This document shows, piece by piece, positions 1,794 through 57,757 of a DNA stretch of 59,758 nucleotides (within the stretch, counting starts at the first letter, position 1; each line of letters begins with the position of its first letter). The notes under the pieces are model-generated. The model saw only the letters and a list, made by a program, of their open reading frames with translations. It had not been told where the DNA came from and did not search any database. Source of the DNA: an uncultured Dehalococcoidales bacterium (GTDB lineage: Bacteria > Chloroflexota > Dehalococcoidia > GIF9 > AB-539-J10); assembly GCA_964545665.1 (NCBI GenBank), contig CAZJGF010000001.1, forward strand, positions 1-59,758. Reading direction: 5' to 3'. The position numbers and the translations under genes were made by a program.

Positions 1794-1818
1794 AAGGGTT
1801 GTCTTAACAGAGGTTGGT

Positions 1819-4830: not shown

Positions 4831-4969
4831 ATTGCAGTCAATAATAGCCTTTCAAAAGCCGCGATGAATTAGGTCATACCAAGGGGTGATAGGTGGAGTG
4901 GCTTATGAAAGCTCATCAAACCAAATCCCTTACACAGGGCAGCCACGAATTACATAAAGGAGGTTAGCC

Positions 4970-5743: not shown

Positions 5744-5865
5744 ATTAAGGTCTCTTCTCGTAAGATACCAAAAGAACATCAACAAACAAGCTCAGGGGAA
5801 GCTGGTAAGTAAGTGTGTGATTTCAAGAAGGTTTCCTGAGATCTCAGTCTTGGGTAAAAGGAGTA

Positions 5866-6846: not shown

Positions 6847-6975
6847 GTGCAAGACTTGTGGCTTCAAGTGTGGTAACGTATAGCAGACTCTGAATGGTTC
6901 TTTTCCTTCCAAGGGCATCCTCCGGATCTCGCGATGTTGGGAAAATAAATATGAAAGGAGATAGGAAGTACAGAA

Positions 6976-33907: not shown

Positions 33908-33921
33908 CTTTGGAGGCTGGG

Positions 33922-36900: not shown

Positions 36901-37002
36901 CGACTTGGTAGCTTTGCTGAGGTGGAGCTTGGACTCAGCGAAGAGATAGCCACTGCGGAGGCAAGACGGTGCTTAAGGTGCGATTTGGAGGAGCGGGAGT
37001 AA
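33922..37002 (+). CDS. NuoF/HydB-like subunit fused to a GltD/NfnB-like NAD(P)H:FAD oxidoreductase module
   Basis: The N-terminal ~550 aa match the NuoF copy at 29002 (GRGGAGFPTGLKWEF, ESCGKCVPCRVG, SLCALGRTAPNP). From about 35570 onward the motifs are GltD-type: CPAGVDVPRY, CGRVCPHPCEAKCRR, IIGSGPAGLTAAYYL, GGMMRYGIPEYRLP, VIGGGNAAIDASR, GVFAGGDAVTGP. ATG 33922 gives the same MTFEEIQ start as the paralog. Confidence 0.9.
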   Translation: MTFEEIQSRAELEWETLAHSEKPRILVGAATCGRSAGALNVLQTINDELAKRSIDAIVIQVGCIGLCYLEPLVDIIKPGRPRICYGNITPEIAPELVEDYLIKDDARPDLALGTIGDGDINGVPRFFDLPMLKPQVRIILRNCGTIDPENINHYIANGGYNGFARALEMSPEEVIEEIKRSGLRGRGGAGFPTGLKWEFCRKSPGRGKYLVCNADEGDPGAFMNRSVLEGDPHAVLEGMLIAAYAIGATHGYIYCRAEYPLALERLNIALATMKEYGLLGESILGSSFNFNIEIKEGAGAFVCGEETALMASIEGKRGMPRPRPPFPAQSGIWGKPTNINNVETLAAVAAILQRGADWYAQYGTERSKGTKTFALAGKIKRTGLIEVPLGITLREIIYDIGGGIADDKPFKAVQTGGPSGGCLSADQLDLPVDYETLTRAGSIMGSGGMIVADEDTCIVDFAKFFLTFTQAESCGKCVPCRVGTRQMLDILERITRGEGQDDDIDKLQQLAETVKDGSLCALGRTAPNPVLTTLRYFHDEYEAHIKRKKCPAAVCKGLVKAPCSHTCPAGVDVPRYLRFIGQGKFDEALAVVREKIPFPSVCGRVCPHPCEAKCRRGEVDEPIAIRALKRFAAERGNGLWKVKARMALATGKRVVIIGSGPAGLTAAYYLAKRGHSVTVLEALPEPGGMMRYGIPEYRLPREVLAEEIEEIKGVGVNIELNTKASSLDELFAQGYNAIFLAIGAHQGAKLNIKGEDSPEVIEAVSFLREINMGNEIKVGGRVAVIGGGNAAIDASRSALRLGGREVTIVYRRSRTEMPASEEEIEEAIHEGIRIDFLAAPTRIERKDAAVELICIRMELGAVDASGRRRPVPIEGSESSSIFDTVIAAIGQLPKAPEQFGLPLGKGNVFQVDPYTLATGRDGVFAGGDAVTGPATVIEAIAAGRQAATSIDKYLGGSGVIDETLASPEELEALPDIEEGERHRSPIPTLPLNDRLGSFAEVELGLSEEIATAEARRCLRCDLEERE

Positions 37003-37018
37003 GTTTGATTACGAGCAG

Positions 37019-39749: not shown

Positions 39750-40673
39750 TCAGGGGCGGGGGCAAAGGCCGGCTGCGCTACAGATTCTTGGAATAGTCTC
39801 CTCTCGCTGAAGGGTCATGATGTGGATGCCCGCTACCCCTTCTACCTCTTTCAGTTGATTTATTGTGGCGATAGCGATTTTTGTCCCTTCCGTTGCCATT
39901 TCTTCTTTCGTGCGAGCCTTTAGGAGGCGTTCAATAATTTCATCTGGGACGTCAGTATTGGGGACTTTTGTCTTCATATACCTTGCTGCTGCTAGGGATG
40001 TTATGGGACTGATTCCAGCAAGGATTTTAACCTTCCTATCTAGTCCCTCTTCTTGAACAAGCTCCATCCATTTCTTAAATCTCTCAATGTTATAAACAGG
40101 CTGCGTCTGGACAAAATCTGCCCCGACAGCAACCTTATCCCTCAGGCGAATCACTTCGTCCTCTAGGGATTCGGCAAAGGGGTTTGCTCCTGCCCCAATG
40201 AAAAGTCGTGGCTCTCTTCCAGCTATTGGCTGTCCATTTTCAAACTCTTTCTCATCCCGGAGTCGTTTGACCATCCTGATAAACTGGATGGAATCGAGGT
40301 CGAAGACGGGCTTTGCCTCAGGACAATTTCCGAAAGAAACAGGATCCCCGGAGAGACAAAGTATGTTATTCACGCCAAACGCGGAGATGCCCAACACATC
40401 CATTTGGAGAGCAATTCGATTTCTGTCACGACAAGTCATTTGCGCTATGGGATCAAGACCCTCTTGTTTGCCTATAAGGCAGGCTGCCCAGCTTGCCATC
40501 GCTACCACCGCTGACTCTCCATCTGGGACATTAAAAGCATCAACATAGCCCTTAATCAGATTGAATTTTTCCCTTATCGCCTCGGTCTCCGTATTCTGAG
40601 GGGGACCAACTTGAGCAGTTACGGCAAAACATCCTGTTCCAAGTATCCTCTCCAGGTTGCTTTTCGTCTTCAT
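39750..40673 (-). CDS. metF: Methylenetetrahydrofolate reductase (acetogen-type MetF), stand-alone copy
   Basis: 307 aa with MTCRDRNRIALQ, LCLSGD, and FVQTQPVYN blocks. It is collinear with the second copy at 46759. Confidence 0.85.
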   Translation of the reverse strand: MKTKSNLERILGTGCFAVTAQVGPPQNTETEAIREKFNLIKGYVDAFNVPDGESAVVAMASWAACLIGKQEGLDPIAQMTCRDRNRIALQMDVLGISAFGVNNILCLSGDPVSFGNCPEAKPVFDLDSIQFIRMVKRLRDEKEFENGQPIAGREPRLFIGAGANPFAESLEDEVIRLRDKVAVGADFVQTQPVYNIERFKKWMELVQEEGLDRKVKILAGISPITSLAAARYMKTKVPNTDVPDEIIERLLKARTKEEMATEGTKIAIATINQLKEVEGVAGIHIMTLQREETIPRICSAAGLCPRP

Positions 40674-40763
40674 TTTGAACCCTGTAGCAAATATCTTATC
40701 ATGGTTTGCTGAAATTGATATACCTCGTTGCCAGCTTTCTGGAAACGATTAAACCACCAGTAT

Positions 40764-40792
40764 TTGCAGAAATCCTTAGAAGTACTTATAAT
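40764..40792 (+). promoter_or_regulatory. Candidate sigma-70-type promoter for the kinase/regulator/hdr unit
   Basis: TTGCAG (40764-40769), a 17-nt spacer, then TATAAT (40787-40792). The annotated GTG at 40806 has no SD, which implies a very short leader. An inverted repeat AGCAAA-n13-TTTGCT lies at 40686-40710 in the same divergent region. Confidence 0.4.
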
Positions 40793-40805
40793 GTAAACCC
40801 TTGAA

Positions 40806-41936
40806 GTGAAAGCAGTAACCGGGTTGGGCTCAGGCAAGGAAATACTAAAAGAATCAGACCTGTTCCGCGGTCTGAGCGACGATGAACTAGATAAGCTGCC
40901 ACCGCTTTGCCAGGAAGAAGTTTATGAGGCTGGGGTGGTTGTTTTCCTTGAAGGCGGCTGCTGCCATGCTATGTATATTGTGGAATCGGGCAAGGTGGCT
41001 CTGGAAATGAACCTTCATATTGGTCGGGTGGCAGAGGAAAGTGCGACGATTGACGTAATAACTAAAGGTGGCTGCTTGTGTTGCTCAGGGCTGATAGATC
41101 CTTGTATCCTTACTGCCACAGGCCGGACTCTTGAGACAACCAGGGTTGTTGTCTTAGATACGGCAGAGCTTATAGGCTTGCTCCAAGAGAACCCTGAAAT
41201 AGGATGTAAGGTGATGAATAACCTGGCCAAGATAGTTTCTTCAAGGCTTAAACACATTAGGGATACGATGGGACGTATTCTGTCCGTTATTTTCCACGAC
41301 CTAAAGGCTCCCTTGGCTGCGGTGGAAAGCTATAATCGGCTGTTGCTTGGTGAGTTCGCCGGAGAATTGAATGAGGAGCAAACGAACATAGTGAAAAGAA
41401 GTAGCAAGAGACTCTCTGATCTTCTAAATTTGGTGAGTAACATCATCGATTTTTCCCGAGTTGGTTTCGGGGACTTGAGGATGGAGAGAATTCCTGTGGG
41501 AAAAGTGATAGAAGATTGCATTGAAGCTATGCGCCCCTTAGCTGAGGAAAAGGGACTGCAACTGGTTGCTGAAGTATCTCCAGAACTCCCCGCTGTTCTC
41601 GGAGTTCAAGAGCGGCTTAAGCAGGTAGTTACCAACCTGTTGTCCAATGCCATTAAATTTACTCCTCACGGAGTAGTAACGGTTAAGGCGAGGGATGGTG
41701 CGGATGGCATACAGGTAGAGGTGGCGGATACCGGGATTGGTATTCCTGCCGAGGAATTGCCTAGGATATTTGATGGCTTCTATCGAGGTCTTGACATGGC
41801 TGAAAGGGGGGCTGGCCTAGGGCTTTCCATAACTAAGCAAATAGTTGAGGCCCACCGTGGTAGGATATGGGTGGTTAGCCCCTGTCCTGAAACCGGGAAG
41901 GGAAGCAAATTTGCCTTCACTTTGCCAAGGACTTGA
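40806..41936 (+). CDS. Cytoplasmic sensor histidine kinase with an N-terminal cNMP-binding-like domain
   Basis: H-box FHDLKAPL, N-box LLSNAIKFTP, G-boxes DTGIGI and GAGLGLS. The N-terminal ~150 aa have a cNMP-like fold pattern with a Cys-rich stretch (GGCLCCSGLIDPC). No TM segments are present. Confidence 0.8.
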   Translation: MKAVTGLGSGKEILKESDLFRGLSDDELDKLPPLCQEEVYEAGVVVFLEGGCCHAMYIVESGKVALEMNLHIGRVAEESATIDVITKGGCLCCSGLIDPCILTATGRTLETTRVVVLDTAELIGLLQENPEIGCKVMNNLAKIVSSRLKHIRDTMGRILSVIFHDLKAPLAAVESYNRLLLGEFAGELNEEQTNIVKRSSKRLSDLLNLVSNIIDFSRVGFGDLRMERIPVGKVIEDCIEAMRPLAEEKGLQLVAEVSPELPAVLGVQERLKQVVTNLLSNAIKFTPHGVVTVKARDGADGIQVEVADTGIGIPAEELPRIFDGFYRGLDMAERGAGLGLSITKQIVEAHRGRIWVVSPCPETGKGSKFAFTLPRT

Positions 41937-42000
41937 AAAGGTGAGGGAAAGGAGTGAGCGGATTAGGCGATTATTAGAACCAGTCGCCGGAGTAAGGTAG

Positions 42001-42423
42001 ATGGCTAAGATTCTGGTAGTAGATGATGACCCTGACATGCGGCTGGCAATTGGTAGCGTGCTAAAGTCGCGTTCCTATGAGATAGTTGAGGCTCGCGATG
42101 GAGAGGAGGCTCTAGCTAGGCTGAATGAAGAAAAGCCAGACTTAATGCTCCTAGACCTTCTGCTGCCAAAGATGGATGGTTTTGCTGTTGTCAAGGAGCT
42201 CAAGAACACCCAGGAGAGGTATCCCAGCGTACCTATACTAATCATAAGCTCGGTAAGGGAGGAAGCCAGTCACCGGCGCTATGAGCTAGAGGTAGGTCAT
42301 AAACTCAATATTGATGAGTATATTGAAAAACCCATTGAGCCGTTTATTCTACTGGAGCGTGTAGAGAGGCTTTTGTCTAAAGGAGGAAAAGATGCAAAAA
42401 CAAACCAAGATACTGGTCATTGA
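42001..42423 (+). CDS. Single-domain response regulator (CheY-like)
   Basis: ILVVDDD ... DLMLLDLLLPKMDG receiver motifs. 140 aa with no output domain. Confidence 0.85.
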   Translation: MAKILVVDDDPDMRLAIGSVLKSRSYEIVEARDGEEALARLNEEKPDLMLLDLLLPKMDGFAVVKELKNTQERYPSVPILIISSVREEASHRRYELEVGHKLNIDEYIEKPIEPFILLERVERLLSKGGKDAKTNQDTGH

Positions 42424-42799
42424 TGACGACCCCGATTTGCAGGCAGCAGTGAAGAAGGTGCTTGAAAGTAAGTCCTACGAAGTGGCTGCTGCGCTCAACG
42501 GAGACGAAGGTTTGCGGAAGGTAGTGGATGAAAGGCCCGATCTAATCATTCTAGACGTAGTGATGCCAGGTAAGAGTGGATTCGAGGTTTGCAAAGAACT
42601 CAAGACTGACCCAAAATATTACTTCTTCTCTCACATCCCTGTGCTGATGCTAACCGTTTATCCTGACGACAGAGAAAAGATGCACCTCTCTATGCGAGAG
42701 GGGATGACGATGGAGGCGGAAGACTACCTGCACAAGCCATTTGATCCTGACGAACTGCTAAACCGAGTGGAGGAATTGCTAGAAAAGAAAGAAAACTAG
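42392..42799 (+). CDS. Single-domain response regulator (CheY-like)
   Basis: ILVIDDD ... DLIILDVVMPGKSG ... KPF receiver motifs. 135 aa. It overlaps the preceding gene. Confidence 0.85.
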   Translation: MQKQTKILVIDDDPDLQAAVKKVLESKSYEVAAALNGDEGLRKVVDERPDLIILDVVMPGKSGFEVCKELKTDPKYYFFSHIPVLMLTVYPDDREKMHLSMREGMTMEAEDYLHKPFDPDELLNRVEELLEKKEN

Positions 42800-42802: not shown

Positions 42803-44044
42803 GTGAATAAGTCAGTTGCAGTTATTGGCGGCGGCATAAGCGGAATAACTTCAGCATTAGAATTAGCCAATAGCGGCTTTAGAGTATACTTAATAGAGAG
42901 AGAAGCAGCAATTGGAGGGCAAGCTGCTTCTTTTTGTTGCAAGGCAACAGAGATCTGCACAAAGTGCTCAGTCTGCTTAATACCCCAAAAACTCAATAAG
43001 GTCGCAGTTCATTCCAAAATCTCGATCCTGACTGATTCGACAGTGGCAGGCTTAAGCGGCAAAGCCGGATATTTTGAGGTCGAAGTGCTTCGAAAACCTC
43101 AATATATTGCTCCAGAGAGATGTGTTGCTTGTGGAATATGTGCCCGAGTCTGTCCTACTGAACCTAAGGCAATCCGTTCTCCTTCCCCGGATGCAATCCC
43201 TTATTGTTATGTCATCGATGAAAGTCGATGTCTTCGCCTTAGAGGTGAAAAGTGCAACCTCTGTCGGGGAACGTGTCCCACAAACGGCATAGATTTTGAC
43301 CGGGAGCCAGAAAGGAAGGAGCTAAGCGTCAGTGCTATCATCGTTGCTACCGGATTCGAGGTTTTCAATGCTCGAGAAATGGGCTCCTTGGGCTATAGTA
43401 GATATCCTAACGTTCTGACTGGCCTTGACCTTGAGAGGATGTTCAATCGGTGGGGCTTTCTTAGACTTCCCTCCAATGGGAAAGAGCCTCGAAAAGTCGC
43501 CTTCATCCAGTGTGTAGGCTCAAGGGATGAAACTCGTGGCTATTGTTCCCAGGTATGCTGCAAGTATGCCATGAGGTTTGCTCGGCTTATCAAATATCAA
43601 AACCCAAATACTGAGGTGACCATCTTTTATATTGACCTTCAGACTGCTGGAAAGGGCTTTGCCGAGTTTTATGAAGAGTGTCGAGGGAATATTCAATTTA
43701 TTCGAGGAGTGCCAGTGGAAATTCTGGAGACCTCCGGGGAACTCGAGGTAAGGTTTGAGAATATTCTAGAAGGGAAGGTTGAACGAGAAACCTTTGACCT
43801 TGTAACCCTTTCGGTGGGCATCACCCCCAGGAAAGACTCCTGGAATCTGGCGAGAGTCTTGGGAATAAATTTGGGAGACCATGGCTTCTTCGATACCAAG
43901 GAGCCGTTTAATTCCATAGAGACGAATGTTGAGGGGATTTTCCTTGCCGGAACTTGTCAGGGTCCTAAAGACATCCCTGATTCTATTGCTCATGGAGTGG
44001 CTGCGGCAGAGGGAGCAATGGGGGTTCTAGAGAAATGCAAGTAA
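42803..44044 (+). CDS. hdrA: HdrA-like flavoprotein (first half of a split tandem HdrA)
   Basis: VAVIGGGISGITSALELA FAD motif, ferredoxin motifs CVACGICARVCP / CNLCRGTCP, and the HdrA signature FIQCVGSRDE..YCSQVCC. The usual LDKTFPT.DCS.C block is replaced by SFCCKATEICTKCSVC. Confidence 0.8.
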   Translation: MNKSVAVIGGGISGITSALELANSGFRVYLIEREAAIGGQAASFCCKATEICTKCSVCLIPQKLNKVAVHSKISILTDSTVAGLSGKAGYFEVEVLRKPQYIAPERCVACGICARVCPTEPKAIRSPSPDAIPYCYVIDESRCLRLRGEKCNLCRGTCPTNGIDFDREPERKELSVSAIIVATGFEVFNAREMGSLGYSRYPNVLTGLDLERMFNRWGFLRLPSNGKEPRKVAFIQCVGSRDETRGYCSQVCCKYAMRFARLIKYQNPNTEVTIFYIDLQTAGKGFAEFYEECRGNIQFIRGVPVEILETSGELEVRFENILEGKVERETFDLVTLSVGITPRKDSWNLARVLGINLGDHGFFDTKEPFNSIETNVEGIFLAGTCQGPKDIPDSIAHGVAAAEGAMGVLEKCK

Positions 44045-45699
44045 AGATGGGCATCTTCCTATGCGATTGCGGGGGGAGTCTAAAGAACATAGATTTTCCC
44101 AAAATTAGCGGAGATTTAGAGAAACTTGAAGACGTTGCCTTTATAGACATAAGCCATAGCTTGTGCCTTGAAGAAGGAGAGAAGGCGATAACTTCCAGAA
44201 TCCTGAGTGAGAACATAAATAGAGTAGTAATCGCTGCTTGCTCACCGGAGTTACGTGAGCACAAATTTGTCAGACTTCTAGAAGGGCTTAGATTTAACCC
44301 CAGTCTTCTTTCCTTGGCAAACATCAGGGAACAATGTTCTTGGACTCGTGAAGGCGATGTCACTGAGAAGGCGACGGAACTTATAAGAATGGCTATGGGT
44401 AAAGCTCGGTTGCTTCAGCCTGTGGAAAGAGAGAGCGTTTCAGTAAACAAAGAAGTACTAGTGCTGGGCGGAGGATTCTCTGGGATGAAATCGGCTCTTG
44501 AGCTTTCCCGGCTTGGAATCAGGACAACCATAGTGGAAGGGAAGTCAACCTTGGGGGGCAAGCTTAAGGAGGTTGAGGGCTTCTACGGACTTAAAACAAG
44601 CCCGAAACAGATGCTTGACTCGATGATAACGGCGATAGAGAAAGATAATAATATCGAGGTTCTAACCTCTGCTGAAGTTACAAGGGTGCGAGGGGAGGTG
44701 GGGGATTTTGACATAACAATAAGAGGAGGGAGAAAAGAATTCTCCCTGAGCTTTGGCGCTATCATCTTTGCCACCGGATATAGAACTGAAATTTTGCCGC
44801 AAGACTTTGAGCTTAAACCCGGAGGTAATATCATCTCACAGCTAGACCTTGTTGAGATGCTGCGAGCTCCAGAGAAGTTGAAACGAAGACCTGAGACTAT
44901 AGGCTTTATTCTCGATGTCTGTGATGAGAATTCACGCCTCCCTACCCTCTCCAGTCTCAACAATGCCTTGGCGGTTAGAGAGAAACTAGGAAGTGAAGTC
45001 TACGTGTTCTGTAAGAATCTGAAGGTAGATAGTGAAGGGGCGGAGGAGCTTTACCGAGAGGCGCGCAATCGCGGAGTAGTGTTTTTGAAATTTGACGAAC
45101 CACCACAGATATACTGTGAGGATGGCCGAGTGGCCATCGAGGCAAAGGATGTTCTTTTGGGTGAAGAGGTGGTGCTCCCCTGTGACCTCTTGGTGGCTGA
45201 GGAAAGAGCTTTGCCCCCAGAAGGAACCAAAGGCTTAAGCTCTATGCTAAATATAGGGACCGACTTCCAAGGCTTCTATCAGGATGAAAATGTGCATCTT
45301 TATTCAGCGGCATCAGCTAGGAAAGGGATGTTTTTTGTCGGAGGCTGCCGCGGGAATCTGGATCTCCGTCGAGCTTTGACCGATATTGCATCTGCGGTGA
45401 TGGGCAGCTATTCGCTTTTGGCTCTGGGGGAGGCAGTGGTCGAGGTGGAGAAAGTAAGGGTCGACCCGGAAAAGTGTCGGGCGTGCCTGACCTGCATCCG
45501 TGTATGTCCCCACGGTGCAGTTCAGTTAGTTCGGTTGGATACTGAGAAGGAGGTAGCTCAGATTTACGATCTGGCTTGTGATGGATGTGGCATCTGCTCT
45601 GCCTTATGTCCGGCAAAGGCAATAGATTTTAAAGGCTATGCCGATGAACAAATCCTTGCTGAAGTTGAAGCAATGGGAGAAACTAATGAACGTAGATAA
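44035..45699 (+). CDS. HdrA-like protein (second half of a split tandem HdrA)
   Basis: It starts with the HdrA-type MGIFLCDCGG domain, then a second Rossmann motif VLVLGGGFSGMKSALELS, and ends with 2x[4Fe-4S] (CRACLTCIRVCPHG, CDGCGICSALCPAKA). It is collinear with residues ~917-1480 of the protein at 48169 but lacks a CVGSR/YCS.VCC block. ATG 44047 is an alternative start. Confidence 0.75.
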   Translation: MQVKMGIFLCDCGGSLKNIDFPKISGDLEKLEDVAFIDISHSLCLEEGEKAITSRILSENINRVVIAACSPELREHKFVRLLEGLRFNPSLLSLANIREQCSWTREGDVTEKATELIRMAMGKARLLQPVERESVSVNKEVLVLGGGFSGMKSALELSRLGIRTTIVEGKSTLGGKLKEVEGFYGLKTSPKQMLDSMITAIEKDNNIEVLTSAEVTRVRGEVGDFDITIRGGRKEFSLSFGAIIFATGYRTEILPQDFELKPGGNIISQLDLVEMLRAPEKLKRRPETIGFILDVCDENSRLPTLSSLNNALAVREKLGSEVYVFCKNLKVDSEGAEELYREARNRGVVFLKFDEPPQIYCEDGRVAIEAKDVLLGEEVVLPCDLLVAEERALPPEGTKGLSSMLNIGTDFQGFYQDENVHLYSAASARKGMFFVGGCRGNLDLRRALTDIASAVMGSYSLLALGEAVVEVEKVRVDPEKCRACLTCIRVCPHGAVQLVRLDTEKEVAQIYDLACDGCGICSALCPAKAIDFKGYADEQILAEVEAMGETNERR

Positions 45700-46075
45700 T
45701 AACAAGATTGTTGCTTTTTGCTGTGCGAACTCAGCTTATCAGGCAGCGGACAAGGCGGGAAAGATGAGGCTTTGTTATCCAGATAATGTCAGGATCATTC
45801 GAGTCCCTTGTGCTGGAAGGGTGGATGTTGTTCATATTCTTAAAGCCTTTGAGAAAGGCGCCGCTGGGGTACTGGTGATGGGTTGTCAGGAGGGTGCCTG
45901 CCAGCATCTTACAGGCAACACTCGAGCGAAGGAAAGGCTAAAGTATGCCGGCGATTTGCTCAAAGAAGTAGGAATAGATAGAGAGCGAGTTAAAATGGTC
46001 AATCTTGCCCCAGACATGGCTCAAAAGTTCATCTGTGAGATTGAGGTGATGATGGAGAAGATAAAGGAGGCGTGA
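45686..46075 (+). CDS. mvhD: MvhD/FlpD-like [2Fe-2S] electron-transfer protein (copy 1)
   Basis: KIVAFCCANSAYQAAD ... IIRVPCAGRV ... GVLVMGCQEGACQH, the typical MvhD Cys pattern. ATG 45686 is preferred to the upstream track start, which overlaps hdrA. Confidence 0.85.
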   Translation: MNVDNNKIVAFCCANSAYQAADKAGKMRLCYPDNVRIIRVPCAGRVDVVHILKAFEKGAAGVLVMGCQEGACQHLTGNTRAKERLKYAGDLLKEVGIDRERVKMVNLAPDMAQKFICEIEVMMEKIKEA

Positions 46076-48168: not shown

Positions 48169-51100
48169 ATGGAATCTAAGAACAGCCTCGTAGGAGCGGC
48201 GCTAGTAGTTGGCGGAGGAATTGGAGGGATGCAGGCTGCGCTTGACCTTGCCGAGTCTGGGTATCACGTCTATTTGGTGGAGAAATCCCCGGCTATCGGT
48301 GGGGCAATGGCTCAGCTGGATAAGACCTTTCCCACCTTAGATTGTTCCATGTGTATTCTCTCTCCCAAACTCATTGAATGTGGAAGGCATCCCAACATAG
48401 AATTGCTTTCCTGCTCAGAACTTGTTGAAGTCAACGGGGAGCCGGGGGATTTCAAAGCCAAGGTCTTAAAGCATCCGAGGTATGTTGATGTTGCCAGGTG
48501 CACCGGGTGCGCTGAGTGTGCTGAAGTCTGTCCGGTAGAGCTTCCCAACGAGTTCGAACAGGATTTAGCTTCGAGGAAGGCCATATTCAGGCCATTCGCC
48601 CAAGCCTTTCCCAATGCCTTTGCCATCGAGAAGAGGGAGAGACCGCCATGCACTTTGACTTGTCCAGCAGGGATAAACATTCAAGGATACGTGGCTTTGA
48701 TCGCCAAGAGGAAATATAGAGAAGCGCTATCCCTGATCAGGGAGTGGGTTCCTATCCCAGGAGTACTGGGTAGGATTTGCCCTGCTCCCTGCGAGGAGAA
48801 ATGCAACCGCAAGCTCTTAGAAGAGCCTGTAGCAATTCGAGTCCTGAAGAGATTTGCCGCCGATATGGTTGAAGATGAATTGTCACCTCCCGAGATAGAG
48901 GAGAAAGAGGAAAGGGTTGCTATCATCGGCTCAGGGCCAGCAGGGCTTACCTGCGCCCATTACCTTCGTCGCGAAGGATATCAGGTTACTGTCTTTGAAG
49001 CCCTCCCTGTGGTTGGAGGAATGCTTTATGTAGGCATCCCTGAGTACCGTTTGCCTAAGAACGTTGTTGAGAAGGAGATTGAGAGTATCAAACGCCTGGG
49101 GATAGAGATAAAGACCAATACCCCTATTGGTGCAGAAATTGGCATTAAAGACCTTCTTGAACAAGGATATGAAGCCGTATTTATCAGTGTTGGAGCGCAT
49201 CGTAGTCAGCGACTTGGCGTTCCAGGCGAAAATGCAGAAAGGGTGATTCACGGTGTCGATTTCTTGAGAGATATTAATTTGGGGAAGGAAGTGAAGACGA
49301 AAGGGAAAGTAGTGATAATAGGAGGTGGAGACGTTGCCATAGATTCAGCCCGCTCTGTTCTTCGCTTGGGTGCCGATGAAGTCGTAGTCCTTTACAGGAG
49401 GACGAGAGTTGAAATGCCTGCCAGGGAGGAAGAGGTTAAAGCTGCCGAAGAGGAAGGGGTGAAGATAGAATATTTGGTCGCTCCTGTGGAGATCCTCTGC
49501 GAAAATGGTAAGGTTACCGGAGTAAAGTGTACTCGTATGCAGCTTGGGGAGCCCGACGTCACCGGGAGGAAGCGTCCTATACCCATACCGGGTTCCGAGT
49601 TTGACCTTAAGGTTGATATGGTAATTCCGGCAATCGGGCAGACGCCTGACCTCTCCTTTGTAGAAAACAGCGGGATAAACATCTCCAGCAGGGGCACTAT
49701 CCAAGTTGACCCAATGACTTTGGAAACAGGCTGTGAAGGAGTCTTTTCTGGAGGGGATTGCCAGACTGGGCCCTCTATTGCAGTTGAAGCTGTAGCCGCT
49801 GGTGCGCGGGCAGCAGAATCCATCATCAGATATATTAACCATCAAGACCTCAAAGAGGGAAGGACTGTAGAGAGGAAGCTCTCCGGTGTTTCTTTTATTC
49901 CTTTCGGTATGGCCAGGGAGTCAAGACAGAAGATGCCAACCATCCCTGTTGAGGAGAGGAAGGTAAGCTTTAAGGAGATAGAGCTTGGCTTCCCTGAAGA
50001 TATGGCCATTAGGGAGGCAAGTCGCTGCCTTGCCTGCGGAATTTGTTCTGAGTGTATGCAATGCGTCGCAGCTTGCAAAGCTAATGCTATTGATCACAAC
50101 ATGAGAGAAGAGATTGTACAACTGAATGTGGGCTCTGTGGTACTCTGTCCTGGATTTGATGAATTCGACCCTGGCCCTCTCTTCAATTACGGATACAGGA
50201 GATATTCCAACGTGGTAACTAGCATAGAATTTGAGAGGATGCTCTCGGCATCGGGGCCATATCAAGGAGAGCTCAAGAGGCCTTCAGATGGGAGGCCGCC
50301 TCAAAGGATAGCCTGGATTCAATGCGTTGGCTCAAGAGATGAAAGCCTAAATCGAGGATATTGCTCTTCTGTGTGCTGCACCTACGCTGTGAAACAAGCT
50401 ATTATCGCCAAGGAACATGTCCCTCTTGAACTGGAAGAGACTATCTTCTTCATGGATATACGAACTCAAGGGAAGGACTTTGATAAGTTCTACAGGCGGG
50501 GAGAGGAAGAGGGAATAGAATTTATGAGGGCTAGGGTCTATAGGATTGAGGAATCAGATGGCACCGGTAGTTTACTTCTCAAGTATGTAGGCGAGGATGA
50601 TAAGCCAAGCACTCGTGAGTTTGACCTGGTTGTCCTATCTGTAGGCCTTCAGCCTTCCTCGACAGCGATAGAACTAGCCAAGAAGCTTGGCATCCAGCTC
50701 AATAAATATGGATTTTGTCACACGAATACATTTTCTCCAGTGGAGACTTCGAGGCCGGGAATCTTTGCCGCTGGCGCCTTTCAAGGCCCGAAGGATATTC
50801 CTGAGACTGTGATGCAGGCAAGCGGAGCAGCGGGAAGCGTTTCCGCTTTGCTTGCTCCGGCACGGAATACCCTGATCAAGAAGAAGCAATATCCGCCGGA
50901 AAGAGACGTCTCTGGGGAAGAACCCAGGATTGGTGTTTTCATATGCCACTGTGGCATCAATATTGGGGGAGTGGTCAATGTGCCTGACGTCACTGACTAC
51001 GCTAAGACACTTCCTGGCGTAGTTTATGCTGAAGACAACCTCTACACTTGCTCTCAGGACACTCAGGAAAGAATAAAAGCAATGGCAAAGGAACATGGTC

Positions 51101-52611
51101 TAAATCGGGTGGTGGTAGCATCGTGCACCCCTCGGACACATGAGCCTTTGTTCCAGGAGACTATCAGAGAAGCCGGCTTGAATAAATACCTTTTTGAGTT
51201 TGCCAATATCCGTGACCAATGCTCCTGGGTTCACATGCATGAGCCAGAGAAGGCTACTGAGAAGGCGAAGGATTTGCTAGGAATGGCAGTGGCAAAGGTA
51301 AGGCTGAAAAAACCACTTAAGCCTCTGTCTCTCCCAGTTAATCACTCTGCTTTGGTTATTGGGGGAGGAATAGCAGGGATGGTAAGTGCCTTAAACTTGG
51401 CAGAGCAAGGTTTCGAAGTCCATCTTATTGAGAGGAGCAGCGAGCTCGGTGGTATGGCAAGGAAAATACATCATACTATTGATAATGGAGATGTTCAGAC
51501 TTTTCTCGGCGATTTAATTAAGAAGGTTAAGGAACATACTAAGGTTAGGGTCTATTACAATACTTGGATTGTAGATGCCTATGGATATGTGGGTCACTTC
51601 ACCACCGAGATAATGAGATATCGAGGCAGGGTAGTAGAGAAGATAGAGCATGGCGCGACTATCATTGCCACCGGGGCCCAGGAGTATAAGCCGAACGGTG
51701 AGTACCTCTATGGAAGAGACCCAAGGGTGCTTACCCAACTTGAACTTGAAGATGAGATAGCCAGAGAGAGTCCGGACATTATCAACTGCGATAACGTAGT
51801 GATGATTCAGTGTGTGGGCTCTCGCAATGGTCAACGACCTTATTGCAGCCGGGTGTGCTGCAATCAAGCAATTAAGAATGCTCTAAAGCTTAAGGAAATA
51901 AGGCCTGAAATGAACATTTACATCCTCTATCGGGATATGAGGACGTATGGATTCTATGAGGAACATTACCGGGAGGCAAGACAACAAGGGGTTGTCTTCC
52001 TCCGCTATGAGCCAGAAGATAAGCCTCGGGTGAGTCAAGAGAGAAAGAGTGGCCAGCTTTTGATAAGGGTTGAGAGCAAGGATCCGGTGCTGGGGGAGAA
52101 AGTAGCTATTGATGCTGATATTCTTGCCCTATCTGTGCCCATGGTTCCCCCGGAGGAAGCAAGAGAGCTTGCAATGCTCTACAAGGTGCCTTTAAACGAG
52201 GATGGCTTCTTCCTAGAGGCACATGTAAAGCTTCGTCCGGTGGATTTCGCCACCGATGGGATCTTTGTCTGCGGGCTTGCCCATGCCCCTAAGTCGATAG
52301 AGGAAAGCATCGCTCAGGCTAAAGCAGCCGCCTCTCGAGCAACCACTATATTAGCCAAGGATACCGTTACGGCTGAGGGCATTGTTGCCTCCGTAAACGA
52401 AAATATTTGCTCAGGTTGTGGCATTTGTGAGGCTCTCTGCCCTTATGGGGCTATCACTATTGATAGGGATAAGAATGTAGCCAAAGTTAACGAAGCTTTG
52501 TGTAAGGGTTGTGGCACTTGCTGTGCCGCTTGCCCTTCAGGAGCTGCCCAACAAAGGAGTTTTACCTCGGAGCAGATTTCAGCCATGCTGGATGCTATTT
52601 TGGAGGTTTAG
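48169..52611 (+). CDS. Giant HdrA-GltD-HdrA fusion flavoprotein (HdrL-like)
   Basis: 1480-aa uninterrupted ORF. Order of parts: HdrA N-part (VVGGGIGGMQAALDLA, LDKTFPTLDCSMC, CTGCAECAEVCP); GltD-like insert at ~48640-49860 (CPAGINIQGY, ICPAPCEEKCNR, IIGSGPAGLTCAHYL, GGMLYVGIPEYRLP, IIGGGDVAIDSAR, GVFSGGDCQTGP); rest of HdrA (CLACGICSECMQC, WIQCVGSRDE..YCSSVCC); the IGVFICHCG domain; a second HdrA unit (VIGGGIAGMVSALNLA, MIQCVGSRNG..YCSRVCC); and a terminal CSGCGICEALCP / CKGCGTCCAACP. Confidence 0.9.
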   Translation: MESKNSLVGAALVVGGGIGGMQAALDLAESGYHVYLVEKSPAIGGAMAQLDKTFPTLDCSMCILSPKLIECGRHPNIELLSCSELVEVNGEPGDFKAKVLKHPRYVDVARCTGCAECAEVCPVELPNEFEQDLASRKAIFRPFAQAFPNAFAIEKRERPPCTLTCPAGINIQGYVALIAKRKYREALSLIREWVPIPGVLGRICPAPCEEKCNRKLLEEPVAIRVLKRFAADMVEDELSPPEIEEKEERVAIIGSGPAGLTCAHYLRREGYQVTVFEALPVVGGMLYVGIPEYRLPKNVVEKEIESIKRLGIEIKTNTPIGAEIGIKDLLEQGYEAVFISVGAHRSQRLGVPGENAERVIHGVDFLRDINLGKEVKTKGKVVIIGGGDVAIDSARSVLRLGADEVVVLYRRTRVEMPAREEEVKAAEEEGVKIEYLVAPVEILCENGKVTGVKCTRMQLGEPDVTGRKRPIPIPGSEFDLKVDMVIPAIGQTPDLSFVENSGINISSRGTIQVDPMTLETGCEGVFSGGDCQTGPSIAVEAVAAGARAAESIIRYINHQDLKEGRTVERKLSGVSFIPFGMARESRQKMPTIPVEERKVSFKEIELGFPEDMAIREASRCLACGICSECMQCVAACKANAIDHNMREEIVQLNVGSVVLCPGFDEFDPGPLFNYGYRRYSNVVTSIEFERMLSASGPYQGELKRPSDGRPPQRIAWIQCVGSRDESLNRGYCSSVCCTYAVKQAIIAKEHVPLELEETIFFMDIRTQGKDFDKFYRRGEEEGIEFMRARVYRIEESDGTGSLLLKYVGEDDKPSTREFDLVVLSVGLQPSSTAIELAKKLGIQLNKYGFCHTNTFSPVETSRPGIFAAGAFQGPKDIPETVMQASGAAGSVSALLAPARNTLIKKKQYPPERDVSGEEPRIGVFICHCGINIGGVVNVPDVTDYAKTLPGVVYAEDNLYTCSQDTQERIKAMAKEHGLNRVVVASCTPRTHEPLFQETIREAGLNKYLFEFANIRDQCSWVHMHEPEKATEKAKDLLGMAVAKVRLKKPLKPLSLPVNHSALVIGGGIAGMVSALNLAEQGFEVHLIERSSELGGMARKIHHTIDNGDVQTFLGDLIKKVKEHTKVRVYYNTWIVDAYGYVGHFTTEIMRYRGRVVEKIEHGATIIATGAQEYKPNGEYLYGRDPRVLTQLELEDEIARESPDIINCDNVVMIQCVGSRNGQRPYCSRVCCNQAIKNALKLKEIRPEMNIYILYRDMRTYGFYEEHYREARQQGVVFLRYEPEDKPRVSQERKSGQLLIRVESKDPVLGEKVAIDADILALSVPMVPPEEARELAMLYKVPLNEDGFFLEAHVKLRPVDFATDGIFVCGLAHAPKSIEESIAQAKAAASRATTILAKDTVTAEGIVASVNENICSGCGICEALCPYGAITIDRDKNVAKVNEALCKGCGTCCAACPSGAAQQRSFTSEQISAMLDAILEV

Positions 52612-52612
52612 A

Positions 52613-53032
52613 ATGGCCAAGAATGAATTTGAGCCGAAAATACTAGGTTTCTGTTGTAACTGGTGTTCGTATGCTGGTGCTGACCTTGCTGGTGTCTCGC
52701 GGTTCCAATATCCCCCCAATATAAGGATAATAAGGGTGATGTGCTCCGGCCGGGTAAGCCCTGCTTTTGTTCTGAAGGCATTAGCGGTTGGATTCGATGG
52801 TGTGCTCATCGCTGGCTGCCATCCAGGGGATTGCCATTATATATCCGGCAACTATAAAACGAGAAGAAGGGCGGAATTCACAAAAAGGCTTTTGGAGCAG
52901 TTTGGAATGGAACCAGAAAGACTGAGATTGGAGTGGATCTCAGCATCTGAGGGAATGAAATTTGCTGAGGTGGTGAGAGACTTCACCAACAAAATAAAGG
53001 AGTTAGGACCAAATTCACTGAAAAGGAGCTGA
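52613..53032 (+). CDS. mvhD: MvhD/FlpD-like protein (copy 2)
   Basis: KILGFCCNWCSYAGAD ... IIRVMCSGRV ... GVLIAGCHPGDCHY. ATG 52613 lies 2 nt after the stop of the giant gene and 7 nt after GGAGG. Confidence 0.85.
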   Translation: MAKNEFEPKILGFCCNWCSYAGADLAGVSRFQYPPNIRIIRVMCSGRVSPAFVLKALAVGFDGVLIAGCHPGDCHYISGNYKTRRRAEFTKRLLEQFGMEPERLRLEWISASEGMKFAEVVRDFTNKIKELGPNSLKRS

Positions 53033-53036: not shown

Positions 53037-53689
53037 ATGGCAAGAAGATGGAAAATAGAACTAGCCTTTTATTGGGCAGCCACCTGTGGAGGCTGTGATG
53101 TGGCAACTTTGGACATTGGAGAGAAAATCCTCGATGTGGTGGACATTGCCGATATTGTCCTTTGGCCTGTGGCGATGGACTTCAAGTACAGAGACGTAGA
53201 GAAGATGGAGCCAAAAAGCATAGATCTGTGTTTGTGTAACGGCGCGGTAAGAAGTCCGGAGCATGAGGAAATAGCCAAGATGCTAAGGGAAAAACCAAAG
53301 GTGATGGTAGCATTTGGAAGTTGCGCCTGCTTCGCGGGATACCGGGGCTTGGGAATGTAGCAAATAAAGAGCAAATATTTGATGTGGCATACCAAGAGAC
53401 ACCTTCCACAGTGAACCCAGATTCTATTGTGCCCAAGACAGAATGTGAAGTGGCGGGAGAGATTTTGACACTTCCTGAGTTGTACGACACGGTGAAGACA
53501 CTGGATCAAACAGTGGATGTTGATTATTACGTGCTTGGTTGGCCCCCGGTTGTAGACGGTATAAACGACGCTGTGGGAATAATCGCCAAGTACGCAGAAA
53601 CCGGGGAGCTGCCTCCAAAGGGAACAGTTGTCGCTTTCGACAAGACTGTATGTGATGAGTGTCCACCCAGCTTCACTTCTGTGCCTTAG
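53037..53689 (+). pseudogene. mvhG: [NiFe]-hydrogenase small subunit (MvhG-like): frameshifted, mutated and 3'-truncated
   Basis: Frame 0 reads ATCGGCDVATLD ... AFGSCACFAG and then stops. The expected continuation GIPGLGNVAN... is in the -1 frame from the GGG run at 53336-53338. The conserved PGCPP is LGWPP (TGG at 53540-53542). The ORF ends soon after VCDECP, so the C-terminal cluster-binding part is missing. Confidence 0.7.
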
Positions 53690-54807
53690 GAGCCCCGGAC
53701 TTTATTGTAGGCCCAAGAGCTGAAGCAGCGAAGAGAAACATAATCGGAGTAGTAGAAAAAGCAGGCACGGAATTGGGGCTGGCGGTGATACATGCTAGGG
53801 GATATGCACAGAGAATACAGGAGATAGTGGGAGGAAAGGCAACACATCCAGTATGTGGCCTGCCCGGGGGTATGTCAAAGGCTCTCTCGAATGAGGAGAG
53901 GGATGAGATAGAGGGTGAGGCCAAGAAGCTAGTTGATTTTGGCAAGAAAAGCCTTGAGATATTTGATGACCTTGTGTTGAAGAACAAAGAATATGTGGAT
54001 TTGATCACAGGTGATACTTATTACCATGAGACGTATTACATGGGCATGGTAGATGAAAATGAGAAAGTAAATTTCTATGAAGGAAAAATAAAGGTGGTGG
54101 ATCCGGATGGAAAGGAATATGCTAGATTTGATGCCAAGGACTACTTGGACTATATAAGCGAAGCAGTGGAGCCTTGGTCGTACCTAAAGTTTCCTTATCT
54201 AAAAGGGGTTGGATGGAAAGGGCTCGTAGATGGGAAGGAGAGTGGCATTTATAGACTGAATTCACTGGCAAGGCTGAATGTTGCCAGTGGCATGGCTACT
54301 CCTAGAGCACAAGAAGCATACACGAGAATGTATGACTTCTTCGGTAAAAAGCCAGTCCATAGCACCCTTGCGTTCCACTGGGCCCGCCTCATAGAGAATC
54401 TATATGCTGCTGAGAGATGCTTGGAGCTCATTCAAGACCCGGAGACAAGTTCTCAAGATATAAGAGGCGACTTAGGAGAGCCTGGCGAGGGGCTAGGTTG
54501 CGTAGAAGCTCCTCGTGTTACACTCTTCCATCACTACTGGGCAGATGAAAAAGGAATAACCAAGAAAGTTAACCTAATAGTCGCCACAGCTCAGAATAAC
54601 GGCCCGATGTGTATGTCAATTAAGAGAGCGGCGCAGAGCTTAATAAAGAATTGGAAAGTAGAAGAAGGCTTACTAAATATGGTAGAAATGGCTTTTAGGG
54701 CTTACGATCCTTGCCTTGCATGCGCAACTCATACGCTTCTAGGACAGGTGCCCCTAAAAATCGTCATAGTTGGCCCAGACAGAAAGGAGTTGCAAAGGCT
54801 AGGTTGA
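53659..54807 (+). pseudogene. mvhA: [NiFe]-hydrogenase large subunit (MvhA-like), 5'-truncated
   Basis: It reads from LHFCALGAPDFIVG to the C-terminal Ni-ligand motif DPCLACATH. The first ~110 aa, including the N-terminal R.CG.C Ni-binding motif, are absent. The frame is closed immediately upstream by TGA TGA (53653-53658). Confidence 0.7.
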
Positions 54808-54940: not shown

Positions 54941-57757
54941 TCAAGACGCTAATGTGATCTCTCTCATCTCGACCGCGTCATCTGCCTCAGCCATAACCTC
55001 AGCCGCTCTACCCGCTGCTCCTGAGGCCTGAGTTACAGAATCTGGGATATCCCGCGGGCTGTGAACATAGCCGCAAGCAAAGATGCCGCGCTTTGTGGTA
55101 TCTAGCGGTTGCAGCAATTTATTTGGAATCTTCACGAAGCCATTTTCATCTAACTCTATGCCTAAGATTTCTGCCAGTTCCTCGCTAATTTGAGGAATCA
55201 TCGCTTGGGCAAGAACCACCAGTTCTGCCTCAAGGCTCTTTATTTCCCCGGTGGTGGTGTCCTCGTACGAAATAACAGGGTTATCGTTCTTGGGGTTGAC
55301 TTCGATCCTGCCGGGACGTCCCCTGATATATGTTGCGTTGTACTCCTTCTTAGCCCTAGCGATATATTCCTGAAACCTCTTACCCACAGCCCTCATGTCC
55401 ATATAGAGAATTGTGGACTTCGTTCCTGGCTCATGTTCATATGCCATCATGGCTTCCTTGGTGGCATGCATGCAGCAGACGCTGGAACAATATGCTTTGT
55501 TCCTAAGATCGCGGGAGCCAACGCATTGGATGAAGGCTATATTGTGAGGGATTTTCCCATCTGAAGGGCGCCTAAGTTCTCCCATAGTAGGTCCTGACGC
55601 TGCAGTTAGCCTCTCGCATTCCATTGCTGTAATAACGTTCTTTATCTTTCCATAGCCATATTCTTCAATGCTTGAGATATCATGAAAATTGAGTCCTGTG
55701 GCGAGGATTATTGCTCCTACATCGAGGCGAATATGCTCATCCTGCATGTGATAATCAATCGCATTTGCCTCACACCGTTTCTCACATTCGTGACATTCGA
55801 TGCACCCTTCTATCTGCCCAGCAAGGCAGCGAGAAGCCTCCTCCACAGCTTCTTCTGGAGTGTAGCCCAAAGTCACCTCACCAAAGCCTCTCATCCTCTC
55901 CTCCACAGGCTCCTTTTCCATCTCGACTCGCTTTTTGAACGGAAAGCGTTTTTGCCTGTCCGCTACCTCCTCCTCGGAAAGCTTCTCCGGCTTCCTTTCC
56001 TCCTCAGACTCAATGGGTTTACCTTGCAAATACAGGTCTATGGAGCGAGCTGCCCTGTTACCTGCTGCTATGGCATCGATAACGAAAGCAGGACCTGTAA
56101 CTACATCCCCGCCGGCAAATACTCCCTCGATGTTAGTTGCCCCGGTATTAGGATCAATTTCTATTGTGCCTCTGTTGGAGAGTGATACGCCAAGCTTCGC
56201 GGCAAACTCTGTTTTCGGATTTTGACCAAGGGCAGTGATTACTGTGTCCACTGGAGCAGAAAACTCAGAGCCTTCGATAGGAATAGGTCGGGGACGCCCG
56301 CTCGCATCCAACTCCCCGAGTTCCATTCTCATACACTCCACCCTGGCGATTCTCCCATCGTCCCGGCAAAAGCGGGTTGGGGTAGTCAGGAAATCAATCT
56401 CTATCCCCTCCTCCTCGGCTGCCTTTACCTCTTCCGCCGAGGCTGGCATTTCGGCGCGGGAACGGCGGTACACAATGTTCACCTCTTCGGCACCAAGGCG
56501 CTTTGCCAGTCGAGCGCAGTCAATAGCTGTGTTCCCCCCACCAATTACTGCTACTTTTTTACCTACCTTCACCTTCTCCCTAAGGTTTACAGCACGAAGA
56601 AATCCTATTCCCTCGAACACCCCGGAAAGGTTTTCCCCCTCCACTCTGAGTCGCGTTCCGCTGGGAGCTCCGGTAGCGAGGAAAAGGGCATCATAACCTT
56701 TGTTTATTTCTTCAAGGGCAATATCCTTGCCAACTTCTACCCCTGTCCTTATTTCCACGCCAAGCTTTTGGATGTAACCTATCTCCTTGCGCACAATCTC
56801 CTTAGGAAGGCGATATTCAGGAATGCCATAGTGGAGCATTCCCCCAGGCTCAGGGAGAGCCTCGAAAACAGTCACCTGGTACCCCTTAAGGGCAAGGTCA
56901 TTAGCAGCAGCAAGACCTGCAGGCCCTGAGCCTACGATTGCTACCTTCTTGTCCCTTTTTGTAATAGCTGGAACTTCAAGCTTGTCAATATCCACTTGAT
57001 CTGCAGCGAACCTCTTTAAGTCGCGGATGGCTATAGGCTCATCAATTTGACCACGATTGCAGGCTTCCTCGCAGGGAGCGTAGCAAACTCGGCCGCAGAC
57101 AGCAGGGAGAGGATTTGTATCTCTTATGAGCTTGTAAGCTTCCTGGAACTTCCCTTCGGCTATGAGCTTAACATACCCGAGCACATTGGTATGAGCAGGG
57201 CAGGCATCCTTGCAAGCTGCTTTACATGGCCTCTCCTCTATCTTAGCGACGGCATACTTCTTAGGGACGGCTTGAGGGAAGGGAATGAAGATGGCTTTTC
57301 TCTCGCCAAGCCCCTGGTCAAATTCGCTCGGCATGATAACCGGGCATCCCTCCGCGCAAAGACCACAGCCAGTGCATTTATCCCAATCAACATAAGGTGC
57401 TCTCCTCTTCACCTTAGCCTGGAAACTTCCAACCTCTCCTGAGACTTCTTCGACTTGGGAATAGGTCAAAAGTTCTATATTTGGATGCTGGCTTGCTTCG
57501 ATCATCTTGGGGGCTAAAATACACATAGCACAATCGTTAGTAGGAAAGGTCTTATCTAGCTGTGCCATCCTCCCTCCGATGCTGGGCGTCTTTTCCACCA
57601 AATACACCTTAAACCCCATATTAGCCAGATCGAGAGAAGCTTGAATCCCAGCTATACCCCCCCCGATTACCAACATTGAGTTATTCGTGGTCTCACCCCC
57701 TTTGTAATTCAGAATGTTTTCCTGTCTTACCAGTTTTCGTGGCTCAGCGTACACCAC
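54941..57757 (-). CDS. HdrA::GltD fusion flavoprotein (single HdrA unit with a GltD-like insert)
   Basis: 938-aa ORF collinear with the first ~900 aa of the giant protein at 48169: IGGGIAGIQASLDLA, LDKTFPTNDCAMC, CTGCGLCAEGCP, then the insert at ~56017-57235 (CPAHTNVLGY, VCYAPCEEACNR, IVGSGPAGLAAANDL, GGMLHYGIPEYRLP, VIGGGNTAIDCAR, GVFAGGDVVTGP), then FIQCVGSRDL..YCSSVCC. The start is uncertain (GTG 57757 or ATG 57676). Confidence 0.85.
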   Translation of the reverse strand: MVYAEPRKLVRQENILNYKGGETTNNSMLVIGGGIAGIQASLDLANMGFKVYLVEKTPSIGGRMAQLDKTFPTNDCAMCILAPKMIEASQHPNIELLTYSQVEEVSGEVGSFQAKVKRRAPYVDWDKCTGCGLCAEGCPVIMPSEFDQGLGERKAIFIPFPQAVPKKYAVAKIEERPCKAACKDACPAHTNVLGYVKLIAEGKFQEAYKLIRDTNPLPAVCGRVCYAPCEEACNRGQIDEPIAIRDLKRFAADQVDIDKLEVPAITKRDKKVAIVGSGPAGLAAANDLALKGYQVTVFEALPEPGGMLHYGIPEYRLPKEIVRKEIGYIQKLGVEIRTGVEVGKDIALEEINKGYDALFLATGAPSGTRLRVEGENLSGVFEGIGFLRAVNLREKVKVGKKVAVIGGGNTAIDCARLAKRLGAEEVNIVYRRSRAEMPASAEEVKAAEEEGIEIDFLTTPTRFCRDDGRIARVECMRMELGELDASGRPRPIPIEGSEFSAPVDTVITALGQNPKTEFAAKLGVSLSNRGTIEIDPNTGATNIEGVFAGGDVVTGPAFVIDAIAAGNRAARSIDLYLQGKPIESEEERKPEKLSEEEVADRQKRFPFKKRVEMEKEPVEERMRGFGEVTLGYTPEEAVEEASRCLAGQIEGCIECHECEKRCEANAIDYHMQDEHIRLDVGAIILATGLNFHDISSIEEYGYGKIKNVITAMECERLTAASGPTMGELRRPSDGKIPHNIAFIQCVGSRDLRNKAYCSSVCCMHATKEAMMAYEHEPGTKSTILYMDMRAVGKRFQEYIARAKKEYNATYIRGRPGRIEVNPKNDNPVISYEDTTTGEIKSLEAELVVLAQAMIPQISEELAEILGIELDENGFVKIPNKLLQPLDTTKRGIFACGYVHSPRDIPDSVTQASGAAGRAAEVMAEADDAVEMREITLAS

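Follow-up and report, generated by a model that had tools for sequence, protein, structure and literature searches.

A probable mvhG-mvhA hydrogenase pseudogene in a Wood-Ljungdahl locus of an uncultured Dehalococcoidia bacterium

The Hdr-Mvh complex of Methanothermococcus thermolithotrophicus (PDB 5ODC) contains a group 3c hydrogenase whose genes lie in the order mvhD-mvhG-mvhA and adjoin hdrA. HdrA proteins of 'type III', which carry a GltD insert and are clustered with mvhADG, have been described in Bathyarchaeota (PMC12054007), and hdr-mvhD-metVF clusters in which no hydrogenase was found have been reported in marine Chloroflexi (PMC5736913). Here we analyse a 59,758-nucleotide (nt) stretch of metagenome-derived DNA, hereafter the window, in which the region 53037-54807 follows a gene for an HdrA-GltD-HdrA fusion and an mvhD gene. 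This region is, with a probability that we put at about 0.9 on the strength of the sequence comparisons below, a non-functional mvhG-mvhA pseudogene that lies at the 3' end of an operon and derives from a cytoplasmic [NiFe]-hydrogenase of group 3c (Mvh-type). A preliminary description of the window had proposed a decaying Mvh-type [NiFe] hydrogenase beside mvhD and the fusion, and this proposal is borne out. We found no prior description of the present pseudogene in the literature.

Lesions in mvhG and mvhA

The open reading frame (ORF) listing of the raw sequence gives three consecutive open frames 3' of mvhD on the plus strand, at 53037-53360 (107 amino acids, aa), 53321-53689 (122 aa) and 53659-54807 (382 aa). 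Pfam matches to the first and last of these are partial: the 107-aa ORF matches only positions 1-84 of 128 of Oxidored_q6, a domain of the NADH dehydrogenase 20-kDa and hydrogenase small subunits (the N-terminal two-thirds), and the 382-aa ORF only positions 338-508 of 508 of NiFeSe_Hases (the C-terminal third). When the 382-aa ORF was used as a protein query, full-length relatives of 486-493 aa were found at no more than 88% identity, together with two proteins of 382 aa at 99% and 91%. Intact comparison loci were fetched (L002; L003, from a Dehalococcoidia metagenome-assembled genome, MAG; L004; L005; and L088), all of which encode MvhD, then MvhG (330-336 aa), then MvhA (from 476 aa, in a copy cut by the contig end, to 493 aa). 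The lesions were aligned against L088, L002, L003 and L004, which defined the following features.

53037-53666, plus strand: what is left of mvhG (small subunit), codons 1-210 of 330, spread over two frames (aligned with the intact L088, L002, L003 and L004)
Between 53334 and 53335, plus strand: lesion 1, a 1-nt deletion, GGC to G-C, causing a frameshift (DNA alignment to intact loci)
53534-53545, plus strand: lesion 2, PGCPP to LGWPP, with CCT to CTT (P to L) at 53534-53536 and TGC to TGG at 53540-53542 (alignment; proximal-cluster Cys lost)
53666-53667, plus strand: lesion 3, deletion junction TGTCCAC/CCAGCTT, with 741 nt absent relative to L088, the closest intact allele
53667-54807, plus strand: remnant of mvhA (large subunit), from codon 109 to codon 487 and the stop, with DPCLACATH still present (alignment to intact alleles)

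At the first lesion, L088, L002, L003 and L004 read TTCGGCGGG, and the window reads TTCGCGGG, as do L001 and L086, two further contigs introduced below. The intact alleles have TGC TTC GGC GGG ATA CC (CFGGIP) where the window has TGCTTC-GCGGGATACC, and the ancestral protein at this site is AFGSCACFGGIPGLGNVAN, not a sequence in which ...CFAG is joined to GIPG.... The frameshift proposed in the preliminary description is real, and alignment to the intact relatives moves it 2-3 nt to the left of the GGG run that had been named, to 53334/53335. Frame 1 of mvhG, read on past the lesion, terminates at 53358-53360. The second lesion, described earlier as a Trp codon at 53540-53542 in place of the PGCPP cysteine, was confirmed, the codon that it replaces being TGC or TGT, and the adjacent P to L change at 53534-53536 was found with it. 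This loss of the cysteine is confined to the window-type allele; L001 and L086 are instead 1 nt short at PGCPP and keep the Cys codon, a second frameshift that is independent of the window's C to W change.

At the third lesion, a junction between small- and large-subunit sequence had been noticed, and the alignment refines it to 53666/53667. The missing segment measures 697-702 nt when the more distant L002-L004 are taken as reference. It comprises the 120 C-terminal codons of MvhG (211-330), including all medial and distal Fe-S cluster cysteines, the 56-nt spacer that held the ribosome-binding site of mvhA, and the first 107 codons of MvhA plus 2 nt, among them those for the RICGVC Ni ligands (R63-I-C-G-V-C68). 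As a result, the first two-thirds of mvhG now run directly into the last four-fifths of mvhA in a different frame. The possibility of clean microhomology at the deletion was considered, and we make no claim to it, as the breakpoints share at most 1-3 ambiguous bases when placed against the closest intact allele. The search for orthologous loci that the preliminary description had proposed has thus yielded both intact mvhGA genes (L088 and L002-L004) and the extent of the deletion.

The window copy has no RxCGxC motif, no continuous small-subunit frame, no PGCPP cysteine and no medial or distal Fe-S clusters, features that a functional enzyme would have. Two of the four Ni-Fe cysteine ligands and one proximal-cluster cysteine are gone, and the sequence spans three reading frames. 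The C-terminal DPCxxCxxH motif (DPCLACATH) is intact in the 382-aa ORF, as the preliminary description had said. The mvhA remnant has neither its native start codon nor a ribosome-binding site, having only a GTG at 53659 without a Shine-Dalgarno sequence. The ribosome-binding site and ATG of mvhG are intact, and a 107-aa N-terminal MvhG peptide may still be made. The remnant would be unable to oxidise or make H2, and in its carriers the Hdr/MetFV complex would be left with NAD(P)H, entering via the GltD insert, and not H2 as its electron partner.

Distribution of the dead and intact alleles

Neither the window's 382-aa product nor P0001, a 382-aa protein, gave a match in exact look-ups. Dead-allele relatives were recovered by homology search, by a scan of metagenome contigs with a 22-mer across the junction, and by protein cluster look-ups. 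L001 (JGI 3300008516) shares both the frameshift and the junction with the window, in surrounding sequence that is 3-7% different. The 22-mer scan found one further metagenome contig, L086 (Ga0315533_1000533), also with both lesions, and the cluster look-ups added four proteins: P0126 (the full 382 aa), P0125 (a 217-aa product), and P0001 and the contig-cut P0123, both with the window-type substitutions.

Decay has continued in these relatives. L086 has a 386-nt frameshifting deletion in the mvhA remnant, corresponding to window 54238-54623 and lying between GAGAG repeats, and 3' of this deletion DPC has become DAC and the stop codon is gone; the 217-aa P0125 is identical to the product of this allele. 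Of the columns that at least 97% of 94 full-length homologues conserve, two are replaced in the window (V200L, and G287V in the PRGT motif), five in P0002 and none in the four closest intact proteins. The dead allele is split into two sub-lineages 4.8% apart, each with further lesions of its own, and was found in two flanking backgrounds that are about 7% apart. The earlier proposal that the lesions are independent events is supported.

The 90% cluster of P0001 also includes a 487-aa member, P0121, which is an intact MvhA. Its contigs (L088, L089 and L090, from three runs of one series) encode mvhD, a 330-aa MvhG, the 487-aa MvhA and the same convergent downstream gene as in the window, and both RxCGxC and DPCxxCxxH are present in this allele. 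Among solved structures, the best matches of P0121 and of the L088 MvhG are MvhA (chain F, E = 1.9e-124) and MvhG (chain E, E = 1.9e-71) of 5ODC; homologues are named F420-non-reducing hydrogenase large subunit. L088 and the window show no differences in the 360 nt compared at the 3' end of the downstream gene and one difference in the 133-nt intergenic spacer; divergence in the mvhA and mvhG parts is 2.9% and 3.8%, respectively, and mvhD differs at 3.2% of positions. An intact allele with a flank so nearly identical to that of the window indicates that the loss is a polymorphism within one species-level population. Some members of this population retain intact mvhDGA, and others hold the dead allele, diversified and still decaying. 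The preliminary description had called the decay recent. This holds in so far as an intact allele lies only 2.9-3.8% away with 0 differences in 360 nt downstream; it is to be qualified in that the dead allele has existed long enough for its sub-lineages to come to differ by 4.8% and for it to occupy backgrounds about 7% apart.

The ancestry of the locus changes at the deletion. With L002 as outgroup, informative sites to the left of the junction group the window with L001 in 13 cases and with L088 in three, and to the right of it in two and 17 cases, respectively (P = 3e-5 for the left-right contrast, by Fisher's exact test). This switch in phylogenetic signal demonstrates homologous recombination involving the dead allele, with a breakpoint within about 80 nt of the junction; its direction may have been either import of the dead allele into the window background or restoration of an intact one in L088. 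To the right of the junction, window and L001 differ by 0.11-0.14 at four-fold sites and in intergenic DNA; to the left, they differ by 0.048 over all sites of the mvhG remnant and by 0.031 at four-fold sites of mvhD. A near-identity island relative to L001 (5-7 differences per 400 nt, with flanks at 6-10%) was also seen at window 55526-56125, within the 938-aa hdrA-gltD-like gene, and would be another sign of frequent recombination in the population.

It is conceivable that the dead mvhGA allele is spreading adaptively by homologous recombination across diverged strains, as a gene-specific sweep in a marine Dehalococcoidia population; we regard this as unlikely. If true, it would make the loss an adaptive one, in which absence of Mvh is favoured, for example where H2 or nickel is scarce or because it stops the leakage of H2 from the bifurcating Hdr complex.

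Selection on the remnants and alternative readings

We calculated omega (dN/dS) from Nei-Gojobori pairwise estimates, and branch values by parsimony. Between the window and L001, the mvhG remnant has 20 nonsynonymous and eight synonymous differences (omega about 0.7), consistent with neutrality. The mvhA remnant has 34 and 39 (omega 0.22, dS 0.175), and the neighbouring 938-aa gene has an omega of 0.196 with a dS of 0.149; among intact orthologues, omega is 0.05-0.085. Branch values are 0.05 for the intact L002, 0.10 for the stem, 0.23-0.26 for the dead-allele branches and about 0.7 for the youngest tips. Substitutions specific to the window number 25 in the 1769 nt of the remnants versus one in 863 nt of flanking functional DNA, a density about 12-fold higher (P = 6e-4); in mvhD there is one such change in the 370 nt compared. 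These patterns point to a clearly relaxed constraint on the remnants.

Several observations weigh against a simple account of gene death and loss of H2 metabolism. The mvhA remnant is not fully neutral (omega 0.22, P = 5e-9), its ratio is no higher than that of the intact neighbour (0.196), and its frame of 382 codons is still open in both allele types. The window shows 59.8 kb of the genome, and a second hydrogenase may lie elsewhere. On the side of gene loss, we found no hyp genes, hycI or second hydrogenase among the window ORFs scanned, whereas in L004 and L005 HycI adjoins the 3' end of mvhA. As a simple pseudogene test, pairwise dN/dS does not set the mvhA part (0.22) apart from the intact neighbour (0.196), because the ancestry of the locus is mosaic. 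This mosaic gave the mvhA remnant a recent ancestry shared with a functional gene, which would explain both its low omega and its open frame without any need for function. We infer that the synonymous divergence to the right of the junction predates inactivation and accounts for much of the low omega; the residual low omega is the one loose end in the pseudogene reading.

The same numbers could be taken to mean that the 379-codon C-terminal fragment of MvhA has been selected for a new, non-catalytic role, for example as a scaffold or partner of MvhD or HdrA, in which case only mvhG would be a pseudogene. The ORF is open in alleles of both the window and the L001 type, the nonsynonymous-to-synonymous ratio is well under neutral on both lineages, and this ratio is significantly below that of the adjacent mvhG remnant (P = 0.028, by Fisher's exact test). 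However, the native start and ribosome-binding site have been deleted, leaving the GTG at 53659 with no Shine-Dalgarno sequence; invariant residues have been replaced, including G to V in PRGT; the frame is wrecked by the 386-nt deletion in L086 and P0125, followed by the changes to the DPC motif and stop codon; and the switch of topology at the junction is a simpler cause of the synonymous excess. We therefore consider a retained role for the fragment very improbable. Even less can be said for an assembly or sequencing artefact, in which a base-calling error and a mis-join would conceal a genome with intact mvhGA. The window does come from a metagenome-derived contig, single-base indels are a common class of error, and the intact allele is known from related contigs. 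However, the identical 1-nt deletion and junction occur in L001 and L086, which derive from other samples and assemblers, and P0126 is a full-length copy of the truncated product; the sequence around the lesions in all three sources is 3-7% different from that of the window. The base lost in the first lesion belongs to a GG dinucleotide, not to a long homopolymer, and the dead alleles carry extra lineage-specific lesions. Because the same frameshift and junction recur in independent assemblies that bear further lesions of their own, the mvhGA lesions are not an artefact, and we leave this explanation next to no probability.

The preliminary description had read the locus as an H2-donating Mvh module in the course of being replaced by an NAD(P)H (GltD) module newly inserted in HdrA, and the GltD insert is indeed the only visible electron-input module remaining in the operon. 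However, GltD-inserted HdrA stands alongside intact MvhDGA in relatives: in L004, a fusion 60% identical to that of the window over 1428 aligned residues lies directly 5' of intact MvhD-MvhG-MvhA, with HycI next, and in L010 a fusion 67% identical to that of the window is likewise directly 5' of intact MvhD-MvhG-MvhA. In Bathyarchaeota, too, such an HdrA is found with mvhADG (PMC12054007). This coexistence indicates that the insert was present before the loss and is no substitute for the hydrogenase. Replacement in the form proposed is thus very improbable; the ancestral complex would have had an NAD(P)H branch as well as an H2 branch, and the present pseudogene allele would have dropped the latter.

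Gene context, related loci and known systems

The mvhGA remnant forms the 3' end of a metV-metF-hdrC-hdrA(GltD)-mvhD operon. The genes that flank the remnant in the window are intact.

48169-52611, plus strand: HdrA-GltD-HdrA fusion, intact, 1480 aa; its GltD insert, NAD(P)H-binding, makes it a 'type III' HdrA (Pfam Pyr_redox_2, Fer4_20, FAD_oxidored and Fer4)
52610-53032, plus strand: mvhD, intact, about 140 aa (full-length match to Pfam FlpD, E = 1.6e-58)
54941-57757, minus strand: convergent hdrA-gltD-like gene, intact, 938 aa, which served as the flanking control (Pfam)

A promoter and terminator scan around the locus gave no signal above shuffled expectation. The window as a whole is a Wood-Ljungdahl locus, with genes for formate-tetrahydrofolate ligase (FTHFS), archaeal-type CODH/ACS subunits, NuoE, a NuoF-GltD fusion, FdhA and MetV, two MTHFR genes, HdrA pieces and two MvhD genes. 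Its FTHFS shares 92% identity with proteins of named Dehalococcoidia/Chloroflexota MAGs, and the Dehalococcoidia MAG locus L003 is syntenic with the window at a protein identity of 76-86%; the MvhD proteins of window and L002-L004 are 76-88% identical. By these sequence criteria, the host is identified as an uncultured Dehalococcoidia/Chloroflexota bacterium with a Wood-Ljungdahl gene cluster. A contig scan of the GTDB representative genomes found none nearer than 76-80% (the best listed match was at 76%, and the 80% match is partial), which indicates that the species of the window is not among the representatives searched.

Three further arrangements were noted in the window. At 42803-46075, two adjacent, slightly overlapping HdrA-like ORFs precede the second mvhD; the first covers positions 139-562 of HdrA2, and the second covers positions 1-230 plus a ferredoxin domain, such that this HdrA is apparently split and permuted. 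At 33452-39697, beside Wood-Ljungdahl genes, there is a row of genes for NuoE, a NuoF-GltD fusion of 1030 aa and a NuoG-domain/FdhA fusion; together they resemble a formate dehydrogenase that is NAD(P)H-linked and possibly bifurcating. At 39750-42799, the second MTHFR gene, on the minus strand, adjoins a histidine kinase and two single-domain response regulators, an arrangement that resembles the metF_1/phoBR reported for deep-sea Chloroflexi. In L003, by comparison, separate NuoE- and NuoF-like genes lie between an N-terminal HdrA piece and the remaining HdrA (1616-7677), with MvhDGA intact. Their occurrence where the window has its GltD insert suggests that the NAD(P)H-input module of the Hdr complex is interchangeable between relatives.

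Among the best 120 matches to the 382-aa ORF, about 20 are MvhA homologues with called lengths of 416-420 aa. These had suggested that MvhA proteins without the N-terminus form a widespread family, a reading that was rejected, as the three loci checked encode selenoproteins split by gene callers at an in-frame TGA. This TGA lies at the second Cys of the N-terminal Ni-ligand motif (RICGV-TGA-PGAHHMAS), at 3983-3985 in L087, 2983-2985 in L091 and 1943-1945 in L092, and the C-terminal motif in all three retains cysteine (DPCxxC). A 2026 selenoproteome review lists UxxC for MvhA/VhuA/VhuU (PMC13188914), and the TGA in these loci implies that selenocysteine occupies another ligand position. L092 has genes for HycI and a complete MvhG as well, and its enzyme therefore looks functional. 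In-frame TGA codons also occur in the HdrA-GltD fusion of L004 (2839-2841, at the cysteine of HDCAM[U]M) and in the MvhD of L087 (about 3198-3200, at FVGG[U]HPGDC), each a predicted selenocysteine where the window has cysteine. In the Deltaproteobacteria MAG AB_3033_Bin_88 (L018, about 275-553), an MvhA homologue reading ...NVKDSYFQ/AHHMASSK... has lost about 31 residues in frame, including RxCGxC; it may be a further inactivated hydrogenase or may reflect faulty assembly.

Annotation pipelines label the 382-aa ORF as a Ni/Fe hydrogenase large subunit, and metabolic reconstruction from this MAG would consequently credit its host, wrongly, with H2 metabolism; keeping this ORF from being counted as a hydrogenase is the practical value of the present analysis. 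As the locus shows, the H2 coupling of the Hdr/MetFV system varies within a single Chloroflexota population, which bears on the use of H2 by marine subsurface Dehalococcoidia. Beyond misannotation and population variability, this appears to be a real and rather recent pseudogene of modest interest, a textbook gene loss that involves no new mechanism.

The order mvhD-mvhG-mvhA beside hdrA is shared with the M. thermolithotrophicus Hdr-Mvh system; unlike that system, the window copy is broken, its host is a bacterium (Chloroflexota), and the operon partner is MetFV and not the CoM-S-S-CoB reductase. As in the clusters of type III HdrA with mvhADG (PMC12054007), a GltD-inserted HdrA lies beside Mvh genes, which are intact in L004 and L010. 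However, those clusters belong to methane- and alkane-metabolising archaea, whereas the loci considered here belong to Dehalococcoidia-like bacteria and are linked to metVF, and Mvh is dead in the window allele. The marine Chloroflexi clusters (PMC5736913) are similar in that metV-metF-hdr-mvhD belong to a Wood-Ljungdahl locus, a two-component system flanks a second metF, and there is no functional hydrogenase in the cluster. They differ in that the window retains the remains of mvhGA, which is intact in relatives; this indicates that the hydrogenase-free state is secondary in the lineage of the window. The locus also resembles other loss-of-function alleles that segregate in bacterial populations, with a disrupting deletion and frameshift, accumulating lesions, an intact conspecific allele and recombination. 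Compared with such pseudogene polymorphisms it is ordinary in kind, and its sole distinguishing point is that one dead allele occurs in two backgrounds about 7% apart.

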